Source: a virus (lineage: Duplodnaviria; Heunggongvirae; Uroviricota; Caudoviricetes). Taken from it: a stretch of 38,765 bases of DNA. Position 1 is the first letter of the stretch; every line of letters starts with the position of its first letter. The position numbers and the translations under genes were made by a program. The notes beneath the pieces are model-generated. The model was not told the DNA's origin, searched no databases, and worked only from the letters and a program-made list of their open reading frames with translations. Positions 4,195 through 30,346 of this stretch are shown here, piece by piece. The stretch lies in the IMG/VR virus record IMGVR_UViG_2654587569_000003, one strand, 5' to 3'.

Positions 4195-4835
4195 TTGTCG
4201 GTATACCTCTCTCGTTTGCTCAGTTGTTCAGGAATATGGTGCAGCAGCTCGCCATCACCACAGTAAATGGCGGCATGATTCGGCACCGATGAACCAAAAC
4301 AGCACAGCAGCACATCGCCCGGTTGTGCTGATGACAACGGCACCTGATACAGCCCTGTGGCCTCCAGATTATCCAGATAGAGATTCTGACCGTGACGCCA
4401 CCAGTCATCCCCGCGATGAAAATCCGGCATCTCAATCCCCGCCAGATGATAAGCATCCCGGAACAGCGTGTAACAGTCCGTCACCCCGTGCTCAAAGCGC
4501 CGCCCGGTGAGATGCGGCACACAGCGGAACTTATGAATCGTCCCCCGGCAGACCAGCCACCACGGCAAATCACTCTGCACCTGCAGCCGCCGGTCGGCCT
4601 CACTCAGCCAGGGCAGACCACCGGGGTGGCTGTGGACCAGCGCCACAATCTCACCCTGCATTTCTGCCTGCAGCCAGTCTTCCGGCGACATACGGAAATA
4701 CGCCTCCGGCTCACCGGAGATATTCACGCAGGGGAAATATCTTTCCCCCTCCGGCGCTCTCACCACGAAGCCGCACGACTCCGCTGGCGCACATCGCCGG
4801 GCGTGCGCCAGAATCGCTGATTCTGTCTGTGTCAT
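4092..4835 (-). CDS. K: Tail tip assembly protein K (MPN/JAMM HSHPGG motif plus NlpC/P60-like C-terminal half)
   Basis: 247 aa ORF; lambda annotation is 199 aa and would start at internal Met (4691); start choice uncertain. Confidence 0.88.
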   Translation of the reverse strand: MTQTESAILAHARRCAPAESCGFVVRAPEGERYFPCVNISGEPEAYFRMSPEDWLQAEMQGEIVALVHSHPGGLPWLSEADRRLQVQSDLPWWLVCRGTIHKFRCVPHLTGRRFEHGVTDCYTLFRDAYHLAGIEMPDFHRGDDWWRHGQNLYLDNLEATGLYQVPLSSAQPGDVLLCCFGSSVPNHAAIYCGDGELLHHIPEQLSKRERYTDKWQRRTHSLWRHRAWRASAFTGICNDLAAASTFV

Positions 4836-4840
4836 GGGAT

Positions 4841-5539
4841 TTACTGCGAAAGTTTGTTAATGGAAAGGAAGCCGCCAAAGTTGCCGACGTTATTGCGGAA
4901 CTTACAACCGCTCAGGCATTTGCTGCATTTATCCTTCGTGATATCGGACGTTGGCTGGTCATATTCATCCGCGACCGCCGGACCGTGATAACCGCACTCA
5001 TCGCCGCGATAGGTCCAGGTGCAGGTGTTGGCCAGCATGATACGTCCCGGAAAAACAGCGCCGTCCGTTTCCGTCGGCGTGGACAGTACAAAAGAGGCAC
5101 TCACCGCGCTCAGTTCGCTGCACTGCTCAATGCGCCAGCGGCTGATCACCTCCTGCTCCGGATCGGCGTTACTGTTTCCGTTGACGAAGTTCACCGCATC
5201 CAGAAAACGGGCGTAAACCTTACGCCGGACCACCGTTCCGCCGACCAGACTCTGCAGATCTTCCGCCATCCCGGTGACCATACCGTACAGGTTAGAAACC
5301 GTCAGCGTGGGGCGCGTACTGGTGCCTTTGCCATTCAGTTCAAAACCACTCCCCTGAATGGGATACGGCTGATACTGTCGCCCCTGCCAGGTGACCGGCT
5401 CACCTTTTTCGTTCTGCTCATTACAGAAAAAATAACGTTCTCCACCGACCTCTGTCAGATCGATTTCCCAGAGCACCACGCTGGCCGACTGCTCCGCACG
5501 GGTGCATTCATTCAGTGTTTCCTGCCGGATATCCTGCAT
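4841..5539 (-). CDS. L: Tail tip protein L
   Basis: 232 aa, MQDIRQETLNECTRAEQSASVVLWEIDLTEVGGERYFFC matches recalled lambda L. Confidence 0.95.
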   Translation of the reverse strand: MQDIRQETLNECTRAEQSASVVLWEIDLTEVGGERYFFCNEQNEKGEPVTWQGRQYQPYPIQGSGFELNGKGTSTRPTLTVSNLYGMVTGMAEDLQSLVGGTVVRRKVYARFLDAVNFVNGNSNADPEQEVISRWRIEQCSELSAVSASFVLSTPTETDGAVFPGRIMLANTCTWTYRGDECGYHGPAVADEYDQPTSDITKDKCSKCLSGCKFRNNVGNFGGFLSINKLSQ

Positions 5540-5572
5540 CAGTTCACCACCTGTTCAAACTCTGCGCTGAAC

Positions 5573-5869
5573 TCAACACGCAACATACTGACCCGCAACG
5601 ACCATTTTGCGCAGGTCACCTTTATCTGCCTGCAACTCATAAGGCGGCGTCCACAGAAAGGACTTCCAGCCCCCGTGCTCAGCCAGAAACGACTCAAGCG
5701 CCGTGGCCTCCCAACGGGAAACAGAAAGCGTCACGCTGTACGTTTTCAGGTCAGCATTCAGCCCGGCAGGCGCACGCTGGGAATAGCCATCACCAAAGCG
5801 CACCTCCCTGACGGAAGGAGCCGATGTCACATCCATCCCGGGTTTCACTTTCCAGCGGAAGGTTTTCAT
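5573..5869 (-). CDS. M: Tail tip protein M, apparently frameshifted near 3' end (possible pseudogene or sequencing error)
   Basis: 98 aa ORF matches lambda M to ...WTPPYE then diverges; lambda-like C-terminus RQIKVTCAKWS.RVSMLRVEFSAEFEQVVN is in another frame and ends in TGATG overlap with L start at 5539. Confidence 0.8.
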   Translation of the reverse strand: MKTFRWKVKPGMDVTSAPSVREVRFGDGYSQRAPAGLNADLKTYSVTLSVSRWEATALESFLAEHGGWKSFLWTPPYELQADKGDLRKMVVAGQYVAC

Positions 5870-8427
5870 CGTCCACCTCCGGAGAACAGACCACCATCGC
5901 GCATCTGCCCGGTCACAACATCCATTGCCGCCTTACGGGCTACGTCATAAACAGCCTTCAGCGCCTGTGGCCCTATCTGCCCGTTCGTGCCGTCGTTGTT
6001 AATCACCACATGGTTATTCTGCTCAAACGTCCCGGACGCCTGCGACCGGCTGTCCACCATGCTGCCCGGTGTACCGACATAACCGCCGGTGGCATAGCCG
6101 CGCATCAGCCGGTAAAGATTCCCCACGCCAATCCGGCTGGTTGCCTCCTTCGTGAAGACAAACTCACCACGGTGAACAATCCCCGCTGGCTCATATTTGC
6201 CGCCGGTTCCCGTAAACCCTCCGGCCGCAAAATGGAATTTCGCCGCAGCGGCCTGAATGGCTGTACCGCCTGACGCGGATGCGCCGCCACCAACAGCCCC
6301 GCCAATGGCGCTGCCGATACTCCCGACAATCCCCACCATTGCCTGCTTAAGCAGAATTTCTGTCATCATGGACAGCACGGAACGGGTGAAGCTGCGCCAG
6401 TTCTGCTCACTGCCGGTCAGCATCGCCGCCATATTCTGTGCAATACCATCAAAGGTCTGCGTGGCAGCACTTTTAACCTGCGACATACTGTCCGTGGCGC
6501 TCTCTTCCCACTCACTCCAGCCGGACCTCAGGCCTGCCATCCAGCTCCCGCGAAGCTGGTCTTCAGCCGCCCAGGTCTTTTTCTGCTCTGACATGACGTT
6601 ATTCAGCGCCAGAGGATTATCGCCATACTGTTCCTTCAGGCGCTGTTCCGTGGCTTCCCGCGCTGCCTGCCGGTCAGTCAGCCCCCGGCTTTTCGCATCA
6701 ATGGCGGCCCGTTTTGCCCGTTGCTGCTGTGCGAATTTATCCGCCTGCTGCGCCAGCGCATTCAGACGCTCCTGATACGTGACCTTATCGCCAAGTACAG
6801 CCAGCTGGCGTTTGTACTCCAGCGTCTCATCTTTATGCGCCAGCAGGGATTTCTCCTGTGCGGACAGCTGGCGACGTTGTGCCGCCTCCTCCAGTACCGC
6901 GAACTGACTCTCCGCCTTCCACAAATCCCGGCGCTGCTGGCTGATTTTCTCATTCGCTCCGGCATGCTTCTCCAGCATCCGGAGTTCAGCCTGAAGCGTC
7001 AGCAGGGCAGCATGAGCACTGTCTTCCTGACGATCGCCCGCAGACACCTTCACGCCGGACTGTTTCGGCTTTTTCAGCGTCGCTTCATAATCCTTTTTCG
7101 CCGCCGCCATCAGCGTGTTGTAATCCGCCTGCAGGATTTTCCCGTCTTTCAGTGCCTTATTCAGTTCTTCCTGACGGGCGGTATATTTCTCCAGCGGCGT
7201 CTGCAGACGTTCGTAAGCCTTCTGCGCCTCTTCGGTATATTTCAGCCGTGACGCTTCGGTATCGCTCTGCTGCTGCGCATTTTTGTCCTGTTGACTCTGC
7301 TGCTCAGCCTTCTTTCGGGCGGCTTCAAGCGCAAGACGGGCCTTTTCACGATCATCCCAGTAACGCGCCCGCGCTTCATCGTTAACAAAATAATCATCCT
7401 TGCGCAGATTCCAGATATCGTCCGCTTTCTTAAACGCGGCCTCTGCCTTAATCAGCATCTCCTGCGCGGTATCAGGACGACCAATATCCAGCACCGCATC
7501 CCACATGGATTTGAAGGCCCGCGCTGTCCTGTCTGCCCAGGTCTCCAGCGTGCCCATGTTCTCTTTCAGGCGGCGGGTCTGGTCATCAAACCCTTTCGTC
7601 GCGGCCTCGTTCGCCGCCTGCAATGCCCCGGCTTCATCGCCGGAACGCTGCAACTGAGCAACATACGCAATCTGCTCCGCCGTCACGTTATGGAACTGGC
7701 GCGCCATCGCTGTCAGCCCCGACGTCGGGTCAGTGGTCAGCTTCCCGAAGGCTTCAGCGACCTTGTCCACCTCCACGCCGGATGCAGAGGAGAAACGCGC
7801 CACACTCTGGCTGATGGACGCAATCTGAGCCTCACCGCTTACCCCCGCCTTAACCAGTGCGCTGAGTGACTCGCTGGTCTGGTTAAACGTCAGCCCTGCC
7901 GCCAGCCCGGCTCTGGACAGGACCAGCATACGATCTGCCGTCAGACCCGACTGATTGCCGGAAAGGACCAGCGTTTTGTTGAAATCGGACAGGGTTGAGT
8001 TGCCCTGATACCAGGCATACGCCAGCGCACCGGTCGCCACCGCCAGCGAGGTGGCCCCCACCATCGGCAGGGTGATCGCACCGGCAAGCCCCCTGAACAT
8101 GGGGATAATCCCGCCGAAGGAGTCCTTCACCTGACCACCCTGTTGCAGCAGGATCAGCCACGGACTTTGCCCGCCTGCAAGCTGCGTGACCACGTCAGTG
8201 AACTGCGCAGGCAGCATACGCATGGCAGCTTTATACTGCCCGACGGAAATCCCCGCTTTCTGTGCAGCCAGCGCCTGCCGGCTCAGCGACTGTTCAACGA
8301 CTGCCGCTGTTTTTTTCGCATCACTTTCCGTACCGGAAAAATGACGCCTGACTCTGGCCATCTGCTCGTCAAATCTGGCCGCATCCAGACTTAAATCAAC
8401 GACCAGATCGCCTACCGGTTCAGCCAT
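5866..8427 (-). CDS. H: Tail tape measure protein H
   Basis: 853 aa, MAEPVGDLVVDLSLDAARFDEQMARV matches recalled lambda H; same length. Confidence 0.95.
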   Translation of the reverse strand: MAEPVGDLVVDLSLDAARFDEQMARVRRHFSGTESDAKKTAAVVEQSLSRQALAAQKAGISVGQYKAAMRMLPAQFTDVVTQLAGGQSPWLILLQQGGQVKDSFGGIIPMFRGLAGAITLPMVGATSLAVATGALAYAWYQGNSTLSDFNKTLVLSGNQSGLTADRMLVLSRAGLAAGLTFNQTSESLSALVKAGVSGEAQIASISQSVARFSSASGVEVDKVAEAFGKLTTDPTSGLTAMARQFHNVTAEQIAYVAQLQRSGDEAGALQAANEAATKGFDDQTRRLKENMGTLETWADRTARAFKSMWDAVLDIGRPDTAQEMLIKAEAAFKKADDIWNLRKDDYFVNDEARARYWDDREKARLALEAARKKAEQQSQQDKNAQQQSDTEASRLKYTEEAQKAYERLQTPLEKYTARQEELNKALKDGKILQADYNTLMAAAKKDYEATLKKPKQSGVKVSAGDRQEDSAHAALLTLQAELRMLEKHAGANEKISQQRRDLWKAESQFAVLEEAAQRRQLSAQEKSLLAHKDETLEYKRQLAVLGDKVTYQERLNALAQQADKFAQQQRAKRAAIDAKSRGLTDRQAAREATEQRLKEQYGDNPLALNNVMSEQKKTWAAEDQLRGSWMAGLRSGWSEWEESATDSMSQVKSAATQTFDGIAQNMAAMLTGSEQNWRSFTRSVLSMMTEILLKQAMVGIVGSIGSAIGGAVGGGASASGGTAIQAAAAKFHFAAGGFTGTGGKYEPAGIVHRGEFVFTKEATSRIGVGNLYRLMRGYATGGYVGTPGSMVDSRSQASGTFEQNNHVVINNDGTNGQIGPQALKAVYDVARKAAMDVVTGQMRDGGLFSGGGR

Positions 8428-8854
8428 ACCGGACTCCTCCTGCGATCCCTTCTGATACTGTCATCAGCATTACGTCATCCTCCGTCATGTCCGCCACATC
8501 CGGGGAAACGGGGATAACTTCATTCCCGTCCGGACCAAAACGAACGCCTCCGGCAAGCCCTGCCGCTTTCTGCATCAGCACATCATCTTCAGGCTCTTCG
8601 TCAGCCTCACGCCGGTTCAGCAGACTGAAATCCAGCGGATGCATATCCGGATCGCTGAAAAACAGGCTGAGCACGGTGTACGTCAGCCCGGAAAAGTGCA
8701 TATCCAGCAGAACATCATGAAAATAATGGGTACTGTAAAAGCGGTGCCAGTCGGCATACTCCGTGGATGACATCCCGGCAAGCATGGCACGCCAGTCGGG
8801 TCGCCCCATCTCACGCGCCAGTTTCAGGGCAAAACTCAGCTCACCGTCGAACAC
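8420..8854 (-). CDS. T: T segment of G-T tail assembly chaperone (expressed by -1 frameshift from G)
   Basis: ORF in -1 frame relative to G begins at the slippery site; lambda G-T architecture. Confidence 0.85.
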   Translation of the reverse strand: MFDGELSFALKLAREMGRPDWRAMLAGMSSTEYADWHRFYSTHYFHDVLLDMHFSGLTYTVLSLFFSDPDMHPLDFSLLNRREADEEPEDDVLMQKAAGLAGGVRFGPDGNEVIPVSPDVADMTEDDVMLMTVSEGIAGGVRYG

Positions 8855-9258
8855 TTTCCCGCAGAAACAGGCTCTGCAGGCCCGGCGTCCTCTGCCTGTT
8901 CAGGGGCATCATTCACCACAAACTCATACATACCAGACAGCCGGTACACCACGTTTTCAGCATGAGAAATTGCCTCCGCGGGCCAGGTGGTAAGCACTTC
9001 CTGCTCAATCTGTTTAACGGCTTCATTCATGGACGGCATCTGCGTCTTCTGCGGATGGTTATGCCACAGGGACATCGCCACCACAAAAGCGCCGGTTCTG
9101 ATGGCGTCTTCCACAGTAAACTTCCGGTTGCTGTCTGACTCCGCCTGTTCTGCCTGCCGTTTCATCAGGGCGAGATGCTCAATACGCTGCAGGGCTGACA
9201 GTTCAGAAAGCGTGACGGTCACACCGTTATGTTCAAATGATTCGGTTTTCAGGAACAT
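8836..9258 (-). CDS. G: Tail assembly chaperone G
   Basis: 140 aa, MFLKTESFEHNGVTVTLSELSALQRIEHLALMKRQAEQAESD matches recalled lambda G. Confidence 0.93.
   Translation of the reverse strand: MFLKTESFEHNGVTVTLSELSALQRIEHLALMKRQAEQAESDSNRKFTVEDAIRTGAFVVAMSLWHNHPQKTQMPSMNEAVKQIEQEVLTTWPAEAISHAENVVYRLSGMYEFVVNDAPEQAEDAGPAEPVSAGKCSTVS
8854..8860 (-). other. Programmed -1 ribosomal frameshift slippery heptamer G GGA AAG
   Basis: Plus strand CTTTCCC at 8854..8860; in G zero frame codons GGA AAG (..SAGKCSTVS stop) 5 codons before G stop. Confidence 0.85.
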
Positions 9259-19842: not shown

Positions 19843-20480
19843 AACAATGCAGCCCTGTCGGTCATCAATCCTCTGCTTAATGGCAATGACAATTATCCGA
19901 CTTAAATCACAAATCAGACACATGACATAACAGAGCTTGCGAGGTAACACATCGTCCGGTTTCTTCCACCATCGCACCGGACCAGCGACCATGAGGGGAC
20001 AACGCCGCGCTCCGTTAACACGGTAAACCCCGGTGTGTATCGTTTTTGATTATCCCCGCACACTCGCGCAGAGGAGTCTCCCTCTCGGGCTGTGGTCTCT
20101 GTTGATGCGGGAATACGGCGACGATACAGTGCATAGTTATGTCAGGCTAAAATGCCTTTATCAAATCTGGGTAACGCAATCTGCCATTGTTGGCTCCGGT
20201 TGTGGTGATGATGTCAAGCAAGCCCATCTTGACTATCTCAACTAGTCGATTCATGACATATGTCACATTTATACCAACCAGATCATTGCGTTGAGTTTAC
20301 AACTCAATAATTCTTGGTTGGACGTCAAGTTTTGACGGTATTCGGGTGGCAGTTGATAGCAATCTTGGAACCGTCCACCTAATAGCTGCTTGTGTGGCGT
20401 TTAAATTGTGGAGTGCTCGCAACAGAACTTTTCTTTCTTGTTTGCGAGCGATGTTTAGCAACTTTTAAGAGAGTTAAGTC

Positions 20481-20711
20481 ATGGAGTTTTTGAAAGAGCA
20501 TCATTTGCCTTCAATAATTTTTGGAATTTTTTCCGCCATTTTTTGGATTATTTCATGTTTTGCATCTTCCAAAGAACACCCACCAAAAACGGAACAAGGC
20601 AGTTTCTCATCACTGGGTTGTTTTAAAGCCATTGAAATACAAAGTAAATGGAATAAACGGGCTGCTTTTTGCGCAGCGTTAGCTGTTCTTGCTCAAGTAT
20701 TTAGCTTTTAG
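20481..20711 (+). CDS. Small two-helix membrane protein (76 aa), opposite strand to late operon
   Basis: Two hydrophobic segments; followed by intrinsic terminator; inverted repeat 20415..20449 upstream. Confidence 0.5.
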   Translation: MEFLKEHHLPSIIFGIFSAIFWIISCFASSKEHPPKTEQGSFSSLGCFKAIEIQSKWNKRAAFCAALAVLAQVFSF

Positions 20712-20728
20712 TTTCAAAAGTGTAAATC

Positions 20729-20765
20729 AGAACCACTCGTATAGCGGGTGGTTCTCTGTTTTATT
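20729..20765 (+). terminator. Intrinsic terminator after the small membrane protein gene
   Basis: 8-bp stem AGAACCAC/GTGGTTCT followed by CTGTTTTATT. Confidence 0.6.
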
Positions 20766-20827
20766 CGTGTTGCGACTAAAACTAACTAAAATCACGCATA
20801 TGAAAGATAATGGGAAAATTATCGCTA

Positions 20828-21265
20828 TCATCGAAGGCATTGCGTCCTAATGTACTCCTGCAAGTAGTTAACCTGCGCGGTTATCCTGTCGATTCCACTT
20901 CGGAGACGGTAATAATTGAGTTCAGCATCTGCTGTAAGTCCTGGGGTTTCTCCATTGCCCATGCCGCTGGCTCCGGTCGTTGACTTTGCACAGGTGGCGG
21001 CGACTTGCAGGCGCTTACGCCCAGCAGAAACATCAGCACGGAGACTTTCGATAGTCGCATTAGCATCAGCAAGCTCCTTTGTGTATCTGGCGTCAAGTTC
21101 TGCTACATCACGTTGCCGCTTCTGCATATCAGCGATGATGGATGTGGCTTTATCGCGCTGCTCTTTGTAGGCGATGGCGTTATCACGGTAATGATTAACA
21201 GCCCATGAAAGGCAGACGATGAGGCAGATGACCAGAACGTAGATAATCGCGGTTACTCTGCTCAT
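20828..21265 (-). CDS. Rz: i-spanin Rz
   Basis: [34 protein letters not shown] matches recalled lambda Rz; ATGA overlap with R stop at 21262..21265. Confidence 0.9.
20881..21066 (-). CDS. Rz1: o-spanin Rz1 embedded in Rz in +1 frame
   Basis: Internal start [20 protein letters not shown] lipobox then proline-rich [16 protein letters not shown]; start choice by analogy. Confidence 0.75.
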
Positions 21266-21759
21266 TGTTGCCCCCACAAACAGACTTCACGCTCAATCTC
21301 ACGGCGAGTCATCAGCCCTTTCCATTGCTTACCGCCAGCGTATGTCCAGCGCCGTAGCTGATCACATGCGCCTTTGATATCGCCCTGGTTTATTTTGCGA
21401 AGAAGCGTCGATGTTCTGAAATTGCCAGCGCCCACGTTGTAAACGAACGAGTAAAGAGCGCCGCGCGTTGTTTCCGGTATATCGACGTTGATGTACGGGT
21501 TTATTTGTCTGGCGACCGTGGCAAGGTCTTTATTCAGGAGGGCTTTGCATTCTGCTTCGGTATACGTTTTACCGGGCATGATGTCTTTTCCGGTGTGTCC
21601 GTGACATACAGTCCATACGCCAACGATATCTTCGTATGGTATGTAGCTGACACCTTCCAGGCCATCGTCACCACTCGGACCAGTGATGAGCACAGACGCT
21701 ATGGCAACAGCCCCACCACCAATAGCAGCAGCAACGGCTTTTCGTAATGATGGAGGCAT
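21262..21759 (-). CDS. R: SAR endolysin R (T4-lysozyme-like fold, N-terminal signal-arrest-release helix), phage-21 type
   Basis: 165 aa, [52 protein letters not shown] matches recalled R21. Confidence 0.9.
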
Positions 21760-21965
21760 TATTCACCTCTCGCAGCCTTGCGCTTATCTTCTTTAATCTT
21801 GAAATAAAGGTTTGTCAGATACGTCAGCAGGCCAAACAGCAGACTCCCCAGCACACCTATTGCCACCCACTGGGACGGAGAGACTTTGTCCAGCAGCTGC
21901 AGTAACCAGTATCCCGTCCCCACCGCTGACGTGGTGTATGACACACCTGTTGTGATTTTTTCCAT
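21759..21965 (-). CDS. S: Pinholin S, phage-21 type
   Basis: 68 aa, ..[43 protein letters not shown] matches recalled S21; single start, no upstream in-frame start. Confidence 0.88.
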
Positions 21966-22007
21966 CTGATGTATGTCTCCGTCACCGCCGACAGAAAATG
22001 AAAGTAA

Positions 22008-22046
22008 AGAAAAACAAAAAAGCCGCCAGTGTCACCCACTGACGGC
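22008..22046 (-). terminator. Strong intrinsic terminator about 45 nt upstream of S (tR'-like position)
   Basis: Minus strand GCCGTCAGTG-GGTGA-CACTGGCGGC then TTTTTTTGTTTTTC. Confidence 0.7.
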
Positions 22047-22221
22047 CAACGCCGGGAGCCGTGATTATGGCATTCAGGCTCTGCTAAAAATGCCAGATAA
22101 CATTCCGGCCAACCCCTGATTCAGGTTATAAATGACACAATATCTTGACAACATCCGTCACTGTCTGTCAGAAAATGTACTGCCAAGTATAAGTATCATG
22201 TGAAGTACATCTACCCGTTTT

Positions 22222-22258
22222 AGCCAGCGTCCTTCAGAGTGGGCGCTGGCTTTTTTTA
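22222..22258 (+). terminator. Plus-strand intrinsic terminator abutting the nanS-p stop codon
   Basis: AGCCAGCG-N14-CGCTGGCT followed by TTTTTTT; no U-tract in minus orientation. Confidence 0.6.
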
Positions 22259-24109
22259 TTATGCTGCCGGTGCATTTATCTCCAGCACCAGACTTTCTAT
22301 CTCAACGCCATACGCTGCATTTTTTGTAACATCCGTCAGCGTCAGCGCATTCAGTCCCAGTGTCAGACTGTCTTTTATAACCTGGAATGCCGGGCCAGCC
22401 ACTCCATTCAGTTTCGGAGTAACCGTGGCACTGCCGGCGGTGAACACCAGCTCCAGCGTCTGCCAGTCGTTACCGTAATCGCCGAACTCCCCCAGCTTCG
22501 TGTTTCCGGCTTTCCTGTGATGCATCAGATTCACTCTGCCGTCAGTGGTCTGAGTGAAGTAAGACATCAGGAACGGATTACCAGTACCCGTCATCGCCAC
22601 ATCATCAGGAACGGGAGCGTCCGTATACAGATAAATCCCCAGCCCGAACTGATTGTTGGTCAGTGCGCCTGAGAGGCGGAACTTACAGGTCAGTCTGCCG
22701 CCCTGTGTCAGCAGGGTAATTGCGTCATCCACCGGATGCATCAGGGACCAGGTTTTATTGCTCTGCTTGGTGATCTTAAATACACCATCTGACAACTGAA
22801 TTCCGCCATTCTTAATGCTCCAGCCCTGCGCAGCAGCATCTCCGGCTGTCGGCAACAGGGAGATTGTGCGTACGGATGCATCTTCAGACGGCCCCGATGG
22901 CGTGTCGCCGCCGGGCGAGGGTTTGATTTCCGGTGCCTTACCACTAATGAAGGCTAAGGTGCGACCGGCTACGTTCAGAATAGCAGTTGCCATACGATCG
23001 GGAATAATGCCACGACGCGCCCATGAGCTGAAATGCGTCGGGCGATTTGATGATACCCAGTTTTTGTTCGTTCGGGATGCCGAACCGTAATAACCAGACC
23101 CGGCAATATCAGGATCTTCTGACGGGTTGTTTGTCGGTGTATTAACTCCGCTACCATCGGTCATAAAGGGAACAAAATAAATCTGCTGGGATTCTTTACC
23201 TTTATATGCACCATATACCACTTCATATTGCGTACCGTGTTCTTGTTTCCACGCGTATGTCGTGTCGCCACAAATCCAGGGGACTGATGCCGGACTTCCA
23301 CCGTGACACTGCGCCGCCAGCCCGGCAAAGTCAGCACGGAACTGCTGTACCATTGCAAGAAATGCTGCTGGCTGCTGGGCGTAACTGGCATTCGTCATAT
23401 CGAATTCCCCCTGCATCCAGCATATCGCCAGCAAAACGTTTTTCGGGTTTTTCTGCAATGCTGCCTTCGTGCGGAAAAGCAGATCCTGATATAACGGCTT
23501 ACCCACTCCCCAGCGAGCCGAATCCTGACTGGCCCCCGTGGACTCGCTGAATGTCCCCTCCGTGCCCTGGGTGAATGCCGAACCACCACGACAGCATGGT
23601 ACCAGCAGGATCCCCGCATTATTAGGGATATACGGAAGCAGTTTTTTGGCAATATGTAAGCCCTGTCCGACACAGCCGTACTGCCCTTTGCTCAGGTCAG
23701 CCCGGGGATGGTTAATCGTACTCATATCCTGAACATCATGCAGACAATGGTCAGCAGGAATGATGTCGTTAAATACGCATACTTCACCACCGGGAGTCAC
23801 TGTGTTACGACGGGCCAGTTGCTTAATGCGCGGATGGGGCGCATCGTATGAATCCGGAAGCGGAAGCCCTTCACCGTAAGCCATGGCATTGGATTGCCCG
23901 GCCAGTACGATGACGTAGTACCACTCTGGCTCAGTTGCACCACTGACGACCACATCACCTTCTGCTGCAATCGCCTGCATCAGGGTATAAGGGGTTATGG
24001 CCACCGGACTACCAAACGGCTGCCAGCCCTCTTTCAGTTTATGTGTCAGCTTTTCCGCAAGATCTGACGGCGACGCCGCCCTGACAACATCATAGTGTTT
24101 AAATGCCAT
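22259..24109 (-). CDS. NanS-p-like sialate O-acetylesterase (N-terminal DUF1737-like region plus SGNH/SASA esterase)
   Basis: MAFKHYDVVRAASPSDLAEKLTHKLKEGWQPFGSP..VIVLAGQSNAMAYGEG; position between stx slot and lysis genes as in Stx prophages; start at second Met with GGTGGA SD. Confidence 0.8.
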   Translation of the reverse strand: MAFKHYDVVRAASPSDLAEKLTHKLKEGWQPFGSPVAITPYTLMQAIAAEGDVVVSGATEPEWYYVIVLAGQSNAMAYGEGLPLPDSYDAPHPRIKQLARRNTVTPGGEVCVFNDIIPADHCLHDVQDMSTINHPRADLSKGQYGCVGQGLHIAKKLLPYIPNNAGILLVPCCRGGSAFTQGTEGTFSESTGASQDSARWGVGKPLYQDLLFRTKAALQKNPKNVLLAICWMQGEFDMTNASYAQQPAAFLAMVQQFRADFAGLAAQCHGGSPASVPWICGDTTYAWKQEHGTQYEVVYGAYKGKESQQIYFVPFMTDGSGVNTPTNNPSEDPDIAGSGYYGSASRTNKNWVSSNRPTHFSSWARRGIIPDRMATAILNVAGRTLAFISGKAPEIKPSPGGDTPSGPSEDASVRTISLLPTAGDAAAQGWSIKNGGIQLSDGVFKITKQSNKTWSLMHPVDDAITLLTQGGRLTCKFRLSGALTNNQFGLGIYLYTDAPVPDDVAMTGTGNPFLMSYFTQTTDGRVNLMHHRKAGNTKLGEFGDYGNDWQTLELVFTAGSATVTPKLNGVAGPAFQVIKDSLTLGLNALTLTDVTKNAAYGVEIESLVLEINAPAA

Positions 24110-24369
24110 GGTTCTTTCCACCATCTGAAAAATAATTCTTTAAAATACCTGACATGTAATACAGAAAAAACACAAAACCATACCTTAAATAAAAACCTCA
24201 TCATCAAGCAGATATGCATGGATAAACTACAAGACGAGATATAAACCACCCTGCATTTAAATAAACAATAAACAACATCAGAAAAATAATTCTGCTCTAT
24301 GGTTTACAATCAAAAATATCATTTATACTTTTCAGAACATCACCAGCAAGGCATAAACAAGGAAACTAA

Positions 24370-24705
24370 ATGAAGTGGATTGTGATTGATACAGTTATCC
24401 AGCCATCATGCGGAATATCTTTTTCAGTCATATGGAGTAAAATAAAATTAATAATCTGGTATCAATCGGATGCTTTCTTACCTCCTGAAAGTATATTTAC
24501 ACTGACTCACACAGGTATCATGCTCAATAACAAAGTGCTACCTGTAACCATTTACAACGTAGTACCATTCAATAAAACATTCTGGAATTTAATCAAAAAC
24601 AGCCAGGAATGCCCTACAAATACAGATAACGTATTGAATGAATGCTTTAATAACCGTTGCACTCTGCAAATATGTCCTTATGGACTAAAACAACAAAGTC
24701 CATAA
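24370..24705 (+). CDS. Hypothetical Cys-containing protein (111 aa) in AT-rich cargo segment
   Basis: AAGGA SD 9 nt upstream; TTTACA-17-TACTTT promoter-like hexamers at 24303..24331; hairpin downstream; no recognisable family. Confidence 0.45.
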
Positions 24706-24740
24706 GGAGTTTACTCACATCTGACAAAATCAATATAAAC

Positions 24741-24760
24741 AGCCCCTCCGGAGAGGGGCT
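24741..24760. terminator. Perfect hairpin AGCCCCTC-CGGA-GAGGGGCT between convergent cargo ORFs
   Basis: 8-bp stem read directly; flanking U-tracts weak in both orientations. Confidence 0.4.
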
Positions 24761-25137
24761 GGAGAGTGGCGCTATGTGCCATTGCATGGTGCCGGGTGCC
24801 TCCCGGTGAATTCAGTACCAGCACCTGAATCCGCGATTATCCCATATACCTACTCGCTGATTGCCCCTCCGCACAGGTGGATTCACCATGCCAGTTTCTT
24901 TTAACAAACTCCCCGCAAACCAGACAACAGTCAACCGCCTGAATTGTGAAGTATTTAAAAATTTCTCCGGCTAACAGTCTGGCGTTTTCTTTTTCAGCAA
25001 CGGGAAAGCAACAACCACCACACCCGCCACCAGTACACAGTCAGCCAGCACTGACATTATCCGGCTGCTGCAATGCCATTCACAAAAACAGTAAGCAATC
25101 ACTTTTTACCGTAACAGGTGATAATCCAGATATGTAT

Positions 25138-25601: not shown

Positions 25602-25678
25602 TGGCGCGTTGTACTGGATTCGAACCAGTGACCGATTGCTTAGAAGGCAATTGCTCTGTCCGGCTGAGCTAACAACGC
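25602..25678 (-). tRNA. tRNA-Arg (anticodon UCU)
   Basis: Canonical cloverleaf by hand: acceptor GCGTTGT/ACAACGC, anticodon loop CTTCTAA, T-loop TTCGAAT, CCA encoded. Confidence 0.85.
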
Positions 25679-25775: not shown

Positions 25776-25851
25776 TGGTGGCCCTTGCTGGATTTGAACC
25801 AGCGACCTGGCGATTATGAGTCGCTCGCTCTCACCACTGAGCTAAAGGGCC
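25776..25851 (-). tRNA. tRNA with CAU anticodon, Ile2 (ileX-like) type
   Basis: Acceptor GGCCCTT/AAGGGCC, anticodon loop CTCATAA, T-loop TTCAAAT, CCA encoded; resembles recalled ileX. Confidence 0.85.
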
Positions 25852-29932: not shown

Positions 29933-30088
29933 TTACTCCTCAGGTTCGTAAGCTGTGAAGACAGCGACCTCCGTCTGGCCGGTTCGGATTCGTACCTCGC
30001 AGAGGTCTTTCCTCGTTACCAGTGCCGTCACTATGACGGTTAAACAGATGACGATCAGGGCGATTAACATCGCCTTTTGCTGCTTCAT
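29933..30088 (-). CDS. hok: Hok-family type I toxin (51 aa), near-identical to recalled HokD
   Basis: Hand translation MKQQKAMLIALIVICLTVIVTALVTRKDLCEVRIRTGQTEVAVFTAYEPEE; AAGGAG SD; absent from track (under 60 aa). Confidence 0.9.
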   Translation of the reverse strand: MKQQKAMLIALIVICLTVIVTALVTRKDLCEVRIRTGQTEVAVFTAYEPEE

Positions 30089-30346
30089 AGCCTGCTTCTC
30101 CTTGACCTTTCGGTCCGTAAGAGGCTAATCTCTATGTGTCGCATAGATATGGCCTCAGATTAATGTTAAGCGTCTTGCAGGACGCGTAATGTTAACTGGG
30201 GCTTTTCTCTATCTGCCTTTTGGTGTTCATGCCTGAGACAGATAGCCTCAAGCACCCGCAGTCATTCTACTTAACTAAGATTTCCCCGCAAACCGTTTTT
30301 GTCCGGCACAGTAAATATCCAACTAAACCAATGGCGTTCGCTGTAT

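Follow-up and report, generated by a model that had tools for sequence, protein, structure and literature searches.

Small RNAs (sRNAs) that tie prophages into the host and virulence regulation of EPEC and EHEC include PasA/C, PasD/STnc100, HnrS, AgvB/AsxR and StxS. PasC of EPEC E2348/69 was described as an Hfq-dependent sRNA of about 79 nt, supported by RNA-seq, Northern blot and RIL-seq (Pearl Mizrahi et al. 2021, Sci Adv, PMC8550237). Its Northern sizes match the RNA-seq coverage, the stability of the RNA depends on Hfq, and it is made under virulence-activating conditions (PMC8550237). Table S6 of the same study lists PasC on the minus strand of NC_011601.1, from 1290909 to 1290832, with a length of 79 nt, flanked by E2348C_1246/1247 and overlapping or convergent with the 3' end of the upstream gene, an esterase. 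PasA and PasC were later surveyed across genomes by Zhu, Shabalina & Storz (2026, bioRxiv 10.64898/2026.05.13.724894), who placed the esterase between PasD/STnc100 and PasA/PasC, with the latter adjoining the holin and lysozyme genes. EcOnc51 and EcOnc52 are the EHEC homologues of PasA (Tree et al. 2014, PMC4104026). The same authors reported AgvB and AsxR, RNAs of 51–60 nt from the moron region downstream of PR' in lambdoid prophages. The multicopy prophage sRNA HnrS (EcOnc10-12) measures 66 nt; it represses hha at the RBS and also pairs with the mazF end (Poudyal et al. 2026, PLoS Pathog, PMC13502914).

Here we analysed the 38,765 nt of IMG/VR virus record IMGVR_UViG_2654587569_000003 (the window), a lambdoid prophage with its late operon on the minus strand. 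A SASA-family (NanS-p type) sialate O-acetylesterase of 621 aa is encoded in this operon at 22259-24124 (minus strand; Pfam DUF1737, SASA and DUF6645); PGAP names it 'SASA family carbohydrate esterase' in a near-identical prophage of strain 2013C-3264. An STnc100/PasD-type sRNA (24731-24920; Rfam RF02076, 123.6 bits) is encoded shortly upstream of this gene and likewise on the late-operon strand. The next late gene downstream is the P21-type holin S (21759-21965, minus strand; Pfam Phage_holin_2_1, E 1e-32), followed by the lysozyme gene (21262-21759, minus strand; Pfam). The gap of 293 nt between esterase and S houses the PasC unit on the plus strand at 22180-22257. The order in the window, STnc100, esterase, PasC, holin and lysozyme, is the layout given by Zhu et al., with PasC transcribed against the other genes.

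The interval 22180-22257 was identical to E2348/69 PasC (NC_011601.1, 1290909->1290832) in 78/78 positions, and the identity to the E2348/69 locus was unbroken over 576 nt (22014-22589). The Northern probe published for PasC, CGCTGGCTAAAACGGGTAGATGTAC, is exactly reverse complementary to 22205-22229 and therefore detects the plus-strand RNA only. We concluded that the unit is very probably a copy of pasC, a member of the PasA/PasC prophage sRNA family, that is, an sRNA with its own promoter and Hfq-dependent action in trans. As the element has already been described, this is the rediscovery of a real gene and not a new one. Existence, strand, size, Hfq dependence and the partner list are taken from the published work on the identical sequence; the promoter, the seed and the direction of regulation are inferred in the present analysis.

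PasC appeared new at first sight because Rfam 15 holds no PasA/PasC model and PGAP leaves the gap unannotated: in the near-identical prophage of 2013C-3264 nothing is annotated at PasC. No Rfam 15 family covered the PasC region at its gathering score, nor was any found at E<=10 locally (21900-22400). Weak matches in the Rfam search (ncr982, DUF3800-I and others) were rejected, with 13-21 bits against gathering scores of 39-99; they reflect a generic terminator only. The original prediction, made from the DNA letters, had proposed at this place a short plus-strand unit without coding content, convergent on the 3' end of the esterase gene. Of the ORFs starting inside 22180-22257 none exceeds 7 codons, and the ORFs of at least 20 aa that touch the region were one of 23 aa starting upstream at 22132 and otherwise antisense artefacts only. 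The non-coding unit thus stood, Northern-validated on the identical E2348/69 sequence and ending as foreseen at a terminator abutting the esterase stop, while its promoter and length did not. The earlier reading was partly supported, being right in kind, wrong on promoter and length and incomplete on function. A sequence-only reading had nevertheless recovered an experimentally validated sRNA gene that Rfam 15 and PGAP both miss, and the locus is a useful positive control.

The RNA of the window does not differ from PasC of E2348/69, and the flanks, the position at the esterase stop and the strand relative to the late operon are also the same. The host prophage, in contrast, is a different one. 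The window prophage adjoins potB, carries NleG/EspW effectors and has the holin directly after the sRNA gene, whereas in prophage PP5 of E2348/69 ISEc13 lies between pasC and the remaining prophage. The tail-fibre end of the prophage, which borders potB, holds these T3SS effector genes as a cluster at 4214-9047 (NleG family, a frameshifted EspW and DUF1076 proteins), which marks the source as a strain of EPEC/EHEC type.

The 3' end of PasC is marked by an intrinsic terminator on the plus strand (22222-22257), which was supported by scan, fold and covariation. It consists of an 11-bp stem with 8 G-C pairs, an 8-nt loop and a U7 tail; the hairpin AGCCAGCGTCC/GGGCGCTGGCT occupies 22222-22251 and the T7 run 22251-22257. 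The transcript would end at this terminator, with the U7 tail one base short of the esterase stop codon (TAA, minus strand, 22261-22259), as the original prediction had it. The hairpin ranked first in a terminator scan of 20000-24500, where 11 terminator-like sites were found against 4.3 +/- 2.3 in shuffled sequence. The 78-nt RNA folded with -24.1 kcal/mol (z -2.7). Over six diverged copies the terminator stem was 88% paired, and one stem pair showed compensatory change, being AU in three copies, GC in two and CG in one. An 11-bp stem with U7 and compensatory pairs across variants is what is expected of the family. The phage 434 record (OL657226) likewise has an annotated terminator at the corresponding position.

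The published 5' end of PasC corresponds to position 22180 of the window, and the start of PasA (743499) maps to the same homologous base. The assignment to 22180 rests on RNA-seq coverage and Northern size, not on 5' end mapping. The coordinates of EcOnc51/52 (Tree et al. 2014) were considered as 5'-end evidence and rejected. On NC_002695.2 they are displaced downstream from the expected RNA by 12-20 nt; being CRAC read clusters, possibly on an older genome version, they cannot define ends. Upstream of 22180 we found a candidate -35 element with the perfect consensus TTGACA (22145-22150, plus strand) and, 18 nt after it, a candidate extended -10, TGt-CAGAAA (22166-22174, plus strand, with the hexamer CAGAAA at 22169-22174). 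The geometry of this pair predicts a start at 22180-22182, in agreement with the published end. PasC would most likely be transcribed from this sigma-70 promoter of its own, starting near 22180. The TTGACA was invariant in the PasA, PasC, phage 434 and 2B8 loci and was kept in nearly all of the 88 copies from viral contigs; the tandem second unit at PasA loci has it as well, and so does the diverged copy from E. albertii. The layout TTGACA-18(..TGT)-NAAAAA was found also in this second unit (GAAAAA) and in E. albertii (CAAAAA). The copies of the family are very alike, which limits the weight of promoter conservation.

The original prediction had instead drawn the promoter as CTGTCA-17-TATAAG (22165-22193, plus strand), with an RNA of 50-60 nt. 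Both hexamers are indeed present, CTGTCA at 22165-22170 and TATAAG at 22188-22193, with the ideal spacing of 17 nt; TATAAG is conserved throughout the PasC-type variants and also in the diverged copy from E. albertii, and the 58-nt RNA that would start at about 22200 would still contain the predicted seed and the terminator. The published RNA of 78-79 nt (coverage, Northern), however, starts 20 nt further upstream at 22180, and TATAAG therefore lies inside the RNA and is transcribed. PasA carries TAGAAG at this place, yet has the same homologous 5' end and is more abundant. In addition, TATAAG lacks the near-invariant final T of a -10 element, for which reason it was absent from our consensus-scan list, promoter-like sites were no commoner in the region than in shuffles (5 found, 7.4 expected), and the spacing of the pair changes to 16 in E. 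albertii and to about 20 in the second unit. We regard it as very unlikely that this pair gives rise to the main product or to a second, shorter isoform; it is probably not the main promoter, and judged on the sequence TTGACA-18-TGt-CAGAAA appears to be the better fit for the PasC start. That PasC might have no promoter just upstream at all, its end at about 22180 being cut by an endonuclease from a longer plus-strand RNA that begins further left and runs antisense to the lysis genes, seems rather unlikely to us. CAGAAA is poor as a -10 and is itself without the final T, Zhu et al. suggested from a PasA Northern that the mature 5' end came from cleavage of a longer transcript (bioRxiv 10.64898/2026.05.13.724894), and longer PasA species do exist (236 nt, Table S6, PMC8550237). 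For this 236-nt form, however, Table S6 gives a downstream 3' end (743264) and not an upstream 5' end. The perfect TTGACA sits at exactly the right distance and was retained even in the duplicated second unit, and between 20800 and 22140 no plausible plus-strand promoter was found.

The two remaining alternatives concern the late transcript. The hairpin could be an element of the late-operon mRNA only, serving for instance to stabilise the esterase message at its 3' end or to terminate in both directions, with no functional plus-strand RNA. Its complement does fold well (-24.1 kcal/mol, z -3.7) and it comes directly after the esterase stop codon. Against this, the T-tract is found on the plus strand only, which makes the terminator a one-way one; on the late strand AAAACGGG comes after the hairpin, so that late transcription is not terminated there, and S, R and Rz lie downstream. 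Moreover, in E2348/69 the plus-strand RNA is seen with the strand-specific oligo probe, and Hfq RIL-seq shows PasC abundantly as RNA2 (PMC8550237); we give this explanation practically no credence. A role in cis, besides or instead of that in trans, was also considered. PasC could pair with the Q-antiterminated late transcript, or collide with it through convergent transcription, and so tune the esterase or lysis genes after induction. Over 22180-22257 its complementarity to the late RNA is complete, its position is conserved across lambdoid prophages, and in RIL-seq the 3' ends of the two esterase mRNAs, E2348C_0688 and E2348C_1246, were found in chimeras with PasA (PMC8550237). The PasA-esterase site listed there, CUGGUGCUGGA, is however part of the coding 3' end and agrees with the PasA seed motif, not with the antisense overlap, and the part of the RIL-seq table covered here listed no esterase::PasC chimera. 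The antisense overlap is also more than 215 nt away from the S start codon. A cis role is in our view unlikely. The original prediction had described the RNA as antisense to the region upstream of S; this holds for the late-operon RNA between esterase and S, but the documented role of PasC is that of a trans-acting Hfq sRNA with many partners.

PasC lies 215-292 nt upstream of the S start codon, and a late-strand terminator hairpin (22047-22021) is situated in between. This strong intrinsic terminator on the minus strand has 11 bp followed by TTTTTGTTTT and is located 55 nt upstream of the S start codon. It is also present in the annotation of the phage 434 record, and late transcription must read through it. 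From the late strand of the intergenic region in E2348/69 an RNA named 'pasA.E2348C_0689.IGR' (equivalent to about 22185-22167 of the window) was found in RIL-seq chimeras with PasB. There may be a second small RNA here, divergent from PasC and ending at the 22047-22021 terminator.

For PasC as a trans-acting sRNA the partners are of main interest. In the RIL-seq data PasC is RNA2 in all its chimeras, a position typical of sRNAs, and has at least 30 partners (PMC8550237). The chimera counts given there are 359 for bfpB, 216 for eae-cesT, 154 for pflB, 100 for the yfiD 5'UTR, 61 for rpsE, 51 for the rne 5'UTR, 33 for hha-tomB and 13 for mazF. The published partners thus include bfp, LEE, pflB, hha and rne transcripts. 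Twelve partner segments were selected on their chimera counts and odds ratios, ahead of all work on pairing, and each 12-nt window of PasC was scored against them, with controls. These sliding windows replaced a duplex prediction of the whole molecule against each target, which had returned meaningless long duplexes. Only windows starting at nt 25-32 of PasC stood out, with z between -3.5 and -7.0 against shuffled targets, and none of 300 random genomic sets paired as well as the partners (z -5.4 to -6.1). For the 5' arm of the terminator no pairing enrichment was detected with the same 12 segments (z +0.6 to +2.2).

The pairing pointed to a predicted seed AGUACAUCUACCCGUU at nt 25-40 of PasC (22204-22219, plus strand), upstream of the terminator. 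In the centroid fold the predicted seed is unpaired, and it is followed by UUUU (22218-22221, plus strand, just 5' of the terminator), the terminator and U7. The product of about 78 nt would accordingly begin with a loosely structured 5' part, continue with the single-stranded seed ACAUCUACCCG (about 22207-22217) and a U-rich stretch, and close with the terminator hairpin and the U-tail, which would be the standard build of an Hfq-binding trans-acting sRNA. The best duplexes fell on the RBS or start region in pflB (-13 to 0 from the start codon), hha (-13 to +5 at the RBS, -18.4 kcal/mol), zapG (-15 to +1) and darG (-22 to -2), and on the start region in rffT (-9 to +11). In mazF the best duplex was at the 3' end of the gene, and for the dinD IGR, not placed relative to a gene, it comprised 14 bp with -21.9 kcal/mol. 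The target consensus was roughly (C)GGGUAGAUGU. A single-stranded seed with several mRNA partners, as in the functional class, was in this way obtained computationally. On Hfq, PasC may pair with mRNAs bearing such (C)GGGUAGAUGU-like sites, many of them over the RBS as in pflB, hha, zapG, darG and rffT, and would presumably lower translation or stability of its targets; from the position of the sites translational repression is to be expected.

The seed of PasC was placed elsewhere by Zhu et al., over the 5' arm of the terminator and by homology with PasA (bioRxiv 10.64898/2026.05.13.724894). The two predictions are in disagreement. The seed derived from the targets of PasC is an addition of the present analysis, the earlier one having been transferred from PasA. 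If borne out, the proposed promoter and seed, together with the targets and a seed core shared with HnrS, would give a first mechanistic handle on PasC.

This shared core is the heptamer UCUACCC, common to the predicted PasC seed and to the HnrS seed UCUUCUACCCAAUCAGUAC of Sakai Sp9, which fits the common partners hha and mazF. Like PasC, HnrS is an Hfq sRNA from the prophage late region of EHEC/EPEC with links to the hha RBS and the mazF 3' end. Its locus differs, however, being downstream of Rz/Rz1 and not upstream of S, and the remaining sequence and the terminator are unrelated. HnrS had been considered as an identity for PasC on account of the hha and mazF partners; this was rejected because locus and sequence are different and the window holds no copy of HnrS. 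The mazF-complementary HnrS seed (against the last 15 nt of mazF, CUACCCAAUCAG[U/C]AC) had no match at up to 2 mismatches in the whole window. A segment at 19955-20134 (plus strand) had 93% identity to the stretch of Sakai Sp9 that follows directly on HnrS (EcOnc12). This homology begins only just beyond the place expected for HnrS, which is therefore missing at the corresponding site downstream of the Rz-type lysis gene. PasC may repress hha as HnrS does. Somewhat doubtful is the broader proposal that PasC is a second prophage counter-silencing sRNA, with its seed upstream of the terminator and possibly a cis-antisense effect on top. If true, two unrelated prophage sRNA genes flanking the lysis cassette would converge on the same host targets.

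AgvB and AsxR (Rfam RF02702 and RF02703; Tree et al. 2014) resemble PasC as short Hfq-bound RNAs antisense to the late transcript. They differ in position, AsxR lying 282 bp 3' of stx2AB, and act as sponges of GcvB and FnrS, whereas the partners of PasC are mostly mRNAs. Membership in these families, suggested by the similar size and antisense position, was rejected, as neither RF02702 nor RF02703 matched the window at the gathering score or 21900-22400 at E<=10. STnc100/PasD (RF02076) is the companion sRNA of PasC on the other side of the same esterase, an arrangement described for PasA/PasD2. Unlike PasC it is encoded on the late-operon strand, measures about 170-200 nt and is unrelated in sequence and structure.

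The closest relative of PasC is PasA, from prophage PP2 of E2348/69. To compare them, an alignment was made that took in the window, both E2348/69 loci (PasC and PasA), the phages 434 and 2B8, two prophages from Sakai, and E. albertii. The upstream block was invariant in all aligned loci up to window position 22184; PasA shares with PasC this promoter region, the homologous 5' end and the esterase-holin locus. The two RNAs have a common core CAUGUGAAGUACAUCUA and the same terminator stem base AGCCAGC/GCUGGCU. PasA differs in its 5' stretch CCAUAUAGAAGCAA, in a U for C in the seed (CUAUCC) and in a longer terminator loop. Furthermore, PasA has its own terminator about 150 nt before the esterase stop, and a second tandem unit follows. 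Relative to window 22230-22258 the PasA loci of E2348/69 PP2, phage 434 and Sakai Sp4 and Sp12 contain about 154 extra bp. These form a degenerate second unit, TTGACA...TGTGAAAAA...TATAAGGCCTTTTAGCCAGCG...T7, located after the terminator of PasA itself, and at these loci it is the terminator of the second unit that abuts the esterase stop. The second unit accounts for the 236-nt 'minor' form of PasA. In Sakai Sp4 the second unit alone is left beside the esterase, and EcOnc52 maps there; EcOnc51 in Sakai Sp12 is a copy of the first, PasA-type unit. The window has a single unit, as has PP5 of E2348/69. PasC appears either to have arisen from the two units by recombination or deletion or to be ancestral to them.

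The core 17-mer of the family was present in 92 IMG/VR contigs, and 88 copies were extracted from the fetched IMG/VR loci, comprising PasA-type and PasC-type sequences with few variants. Matches were found in 1652 of 5426 complete E. coli genomes and in 35 phage records, mostly Stx1a-converting. Among GTDB species representatives true copies were found in E. albertii only; the matches of the species scan outside Escherichia were rejected as chance 17-mers without the rest of the gene. The family was thus confined to Escherichia/Shigella prophages and related phages.

Some further features of the window were recorded. Two prophage tRNA genes lie between Q and the esterase region on the minus strand (25602-25678 and 25776-25851), a tRNA-Arg(UCU) and a tRNA with CAU anticodon, which is Met according to ARAGORN and tRNA-Ile according to PGAP in the 2013C-3264 counterpart. 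The window and strain 2013C-3264 differ by indels in this tRNA region. No stx genes were found in the window. A sok antitoxin RNA is present at 30086-30257 (minus strand, 106.7 bits), with hokD nearby according to PGAP in the related strain, and a full-length DicF RNA at 38296-38347 (plus strand, 76.7 bits); both are ordinary in Qin/Rac-like lambdoid prophages. Between the lysis and packaging genes, at 20481-20755 on the plus strand, there is a further unit antisense to the late operon, with an ORF of 76 aa (PGAP: hypothetical protein), a promoter-like site at 20490-20518 and a 12-bp plus-strand terminator hairpin at 20729-20755.
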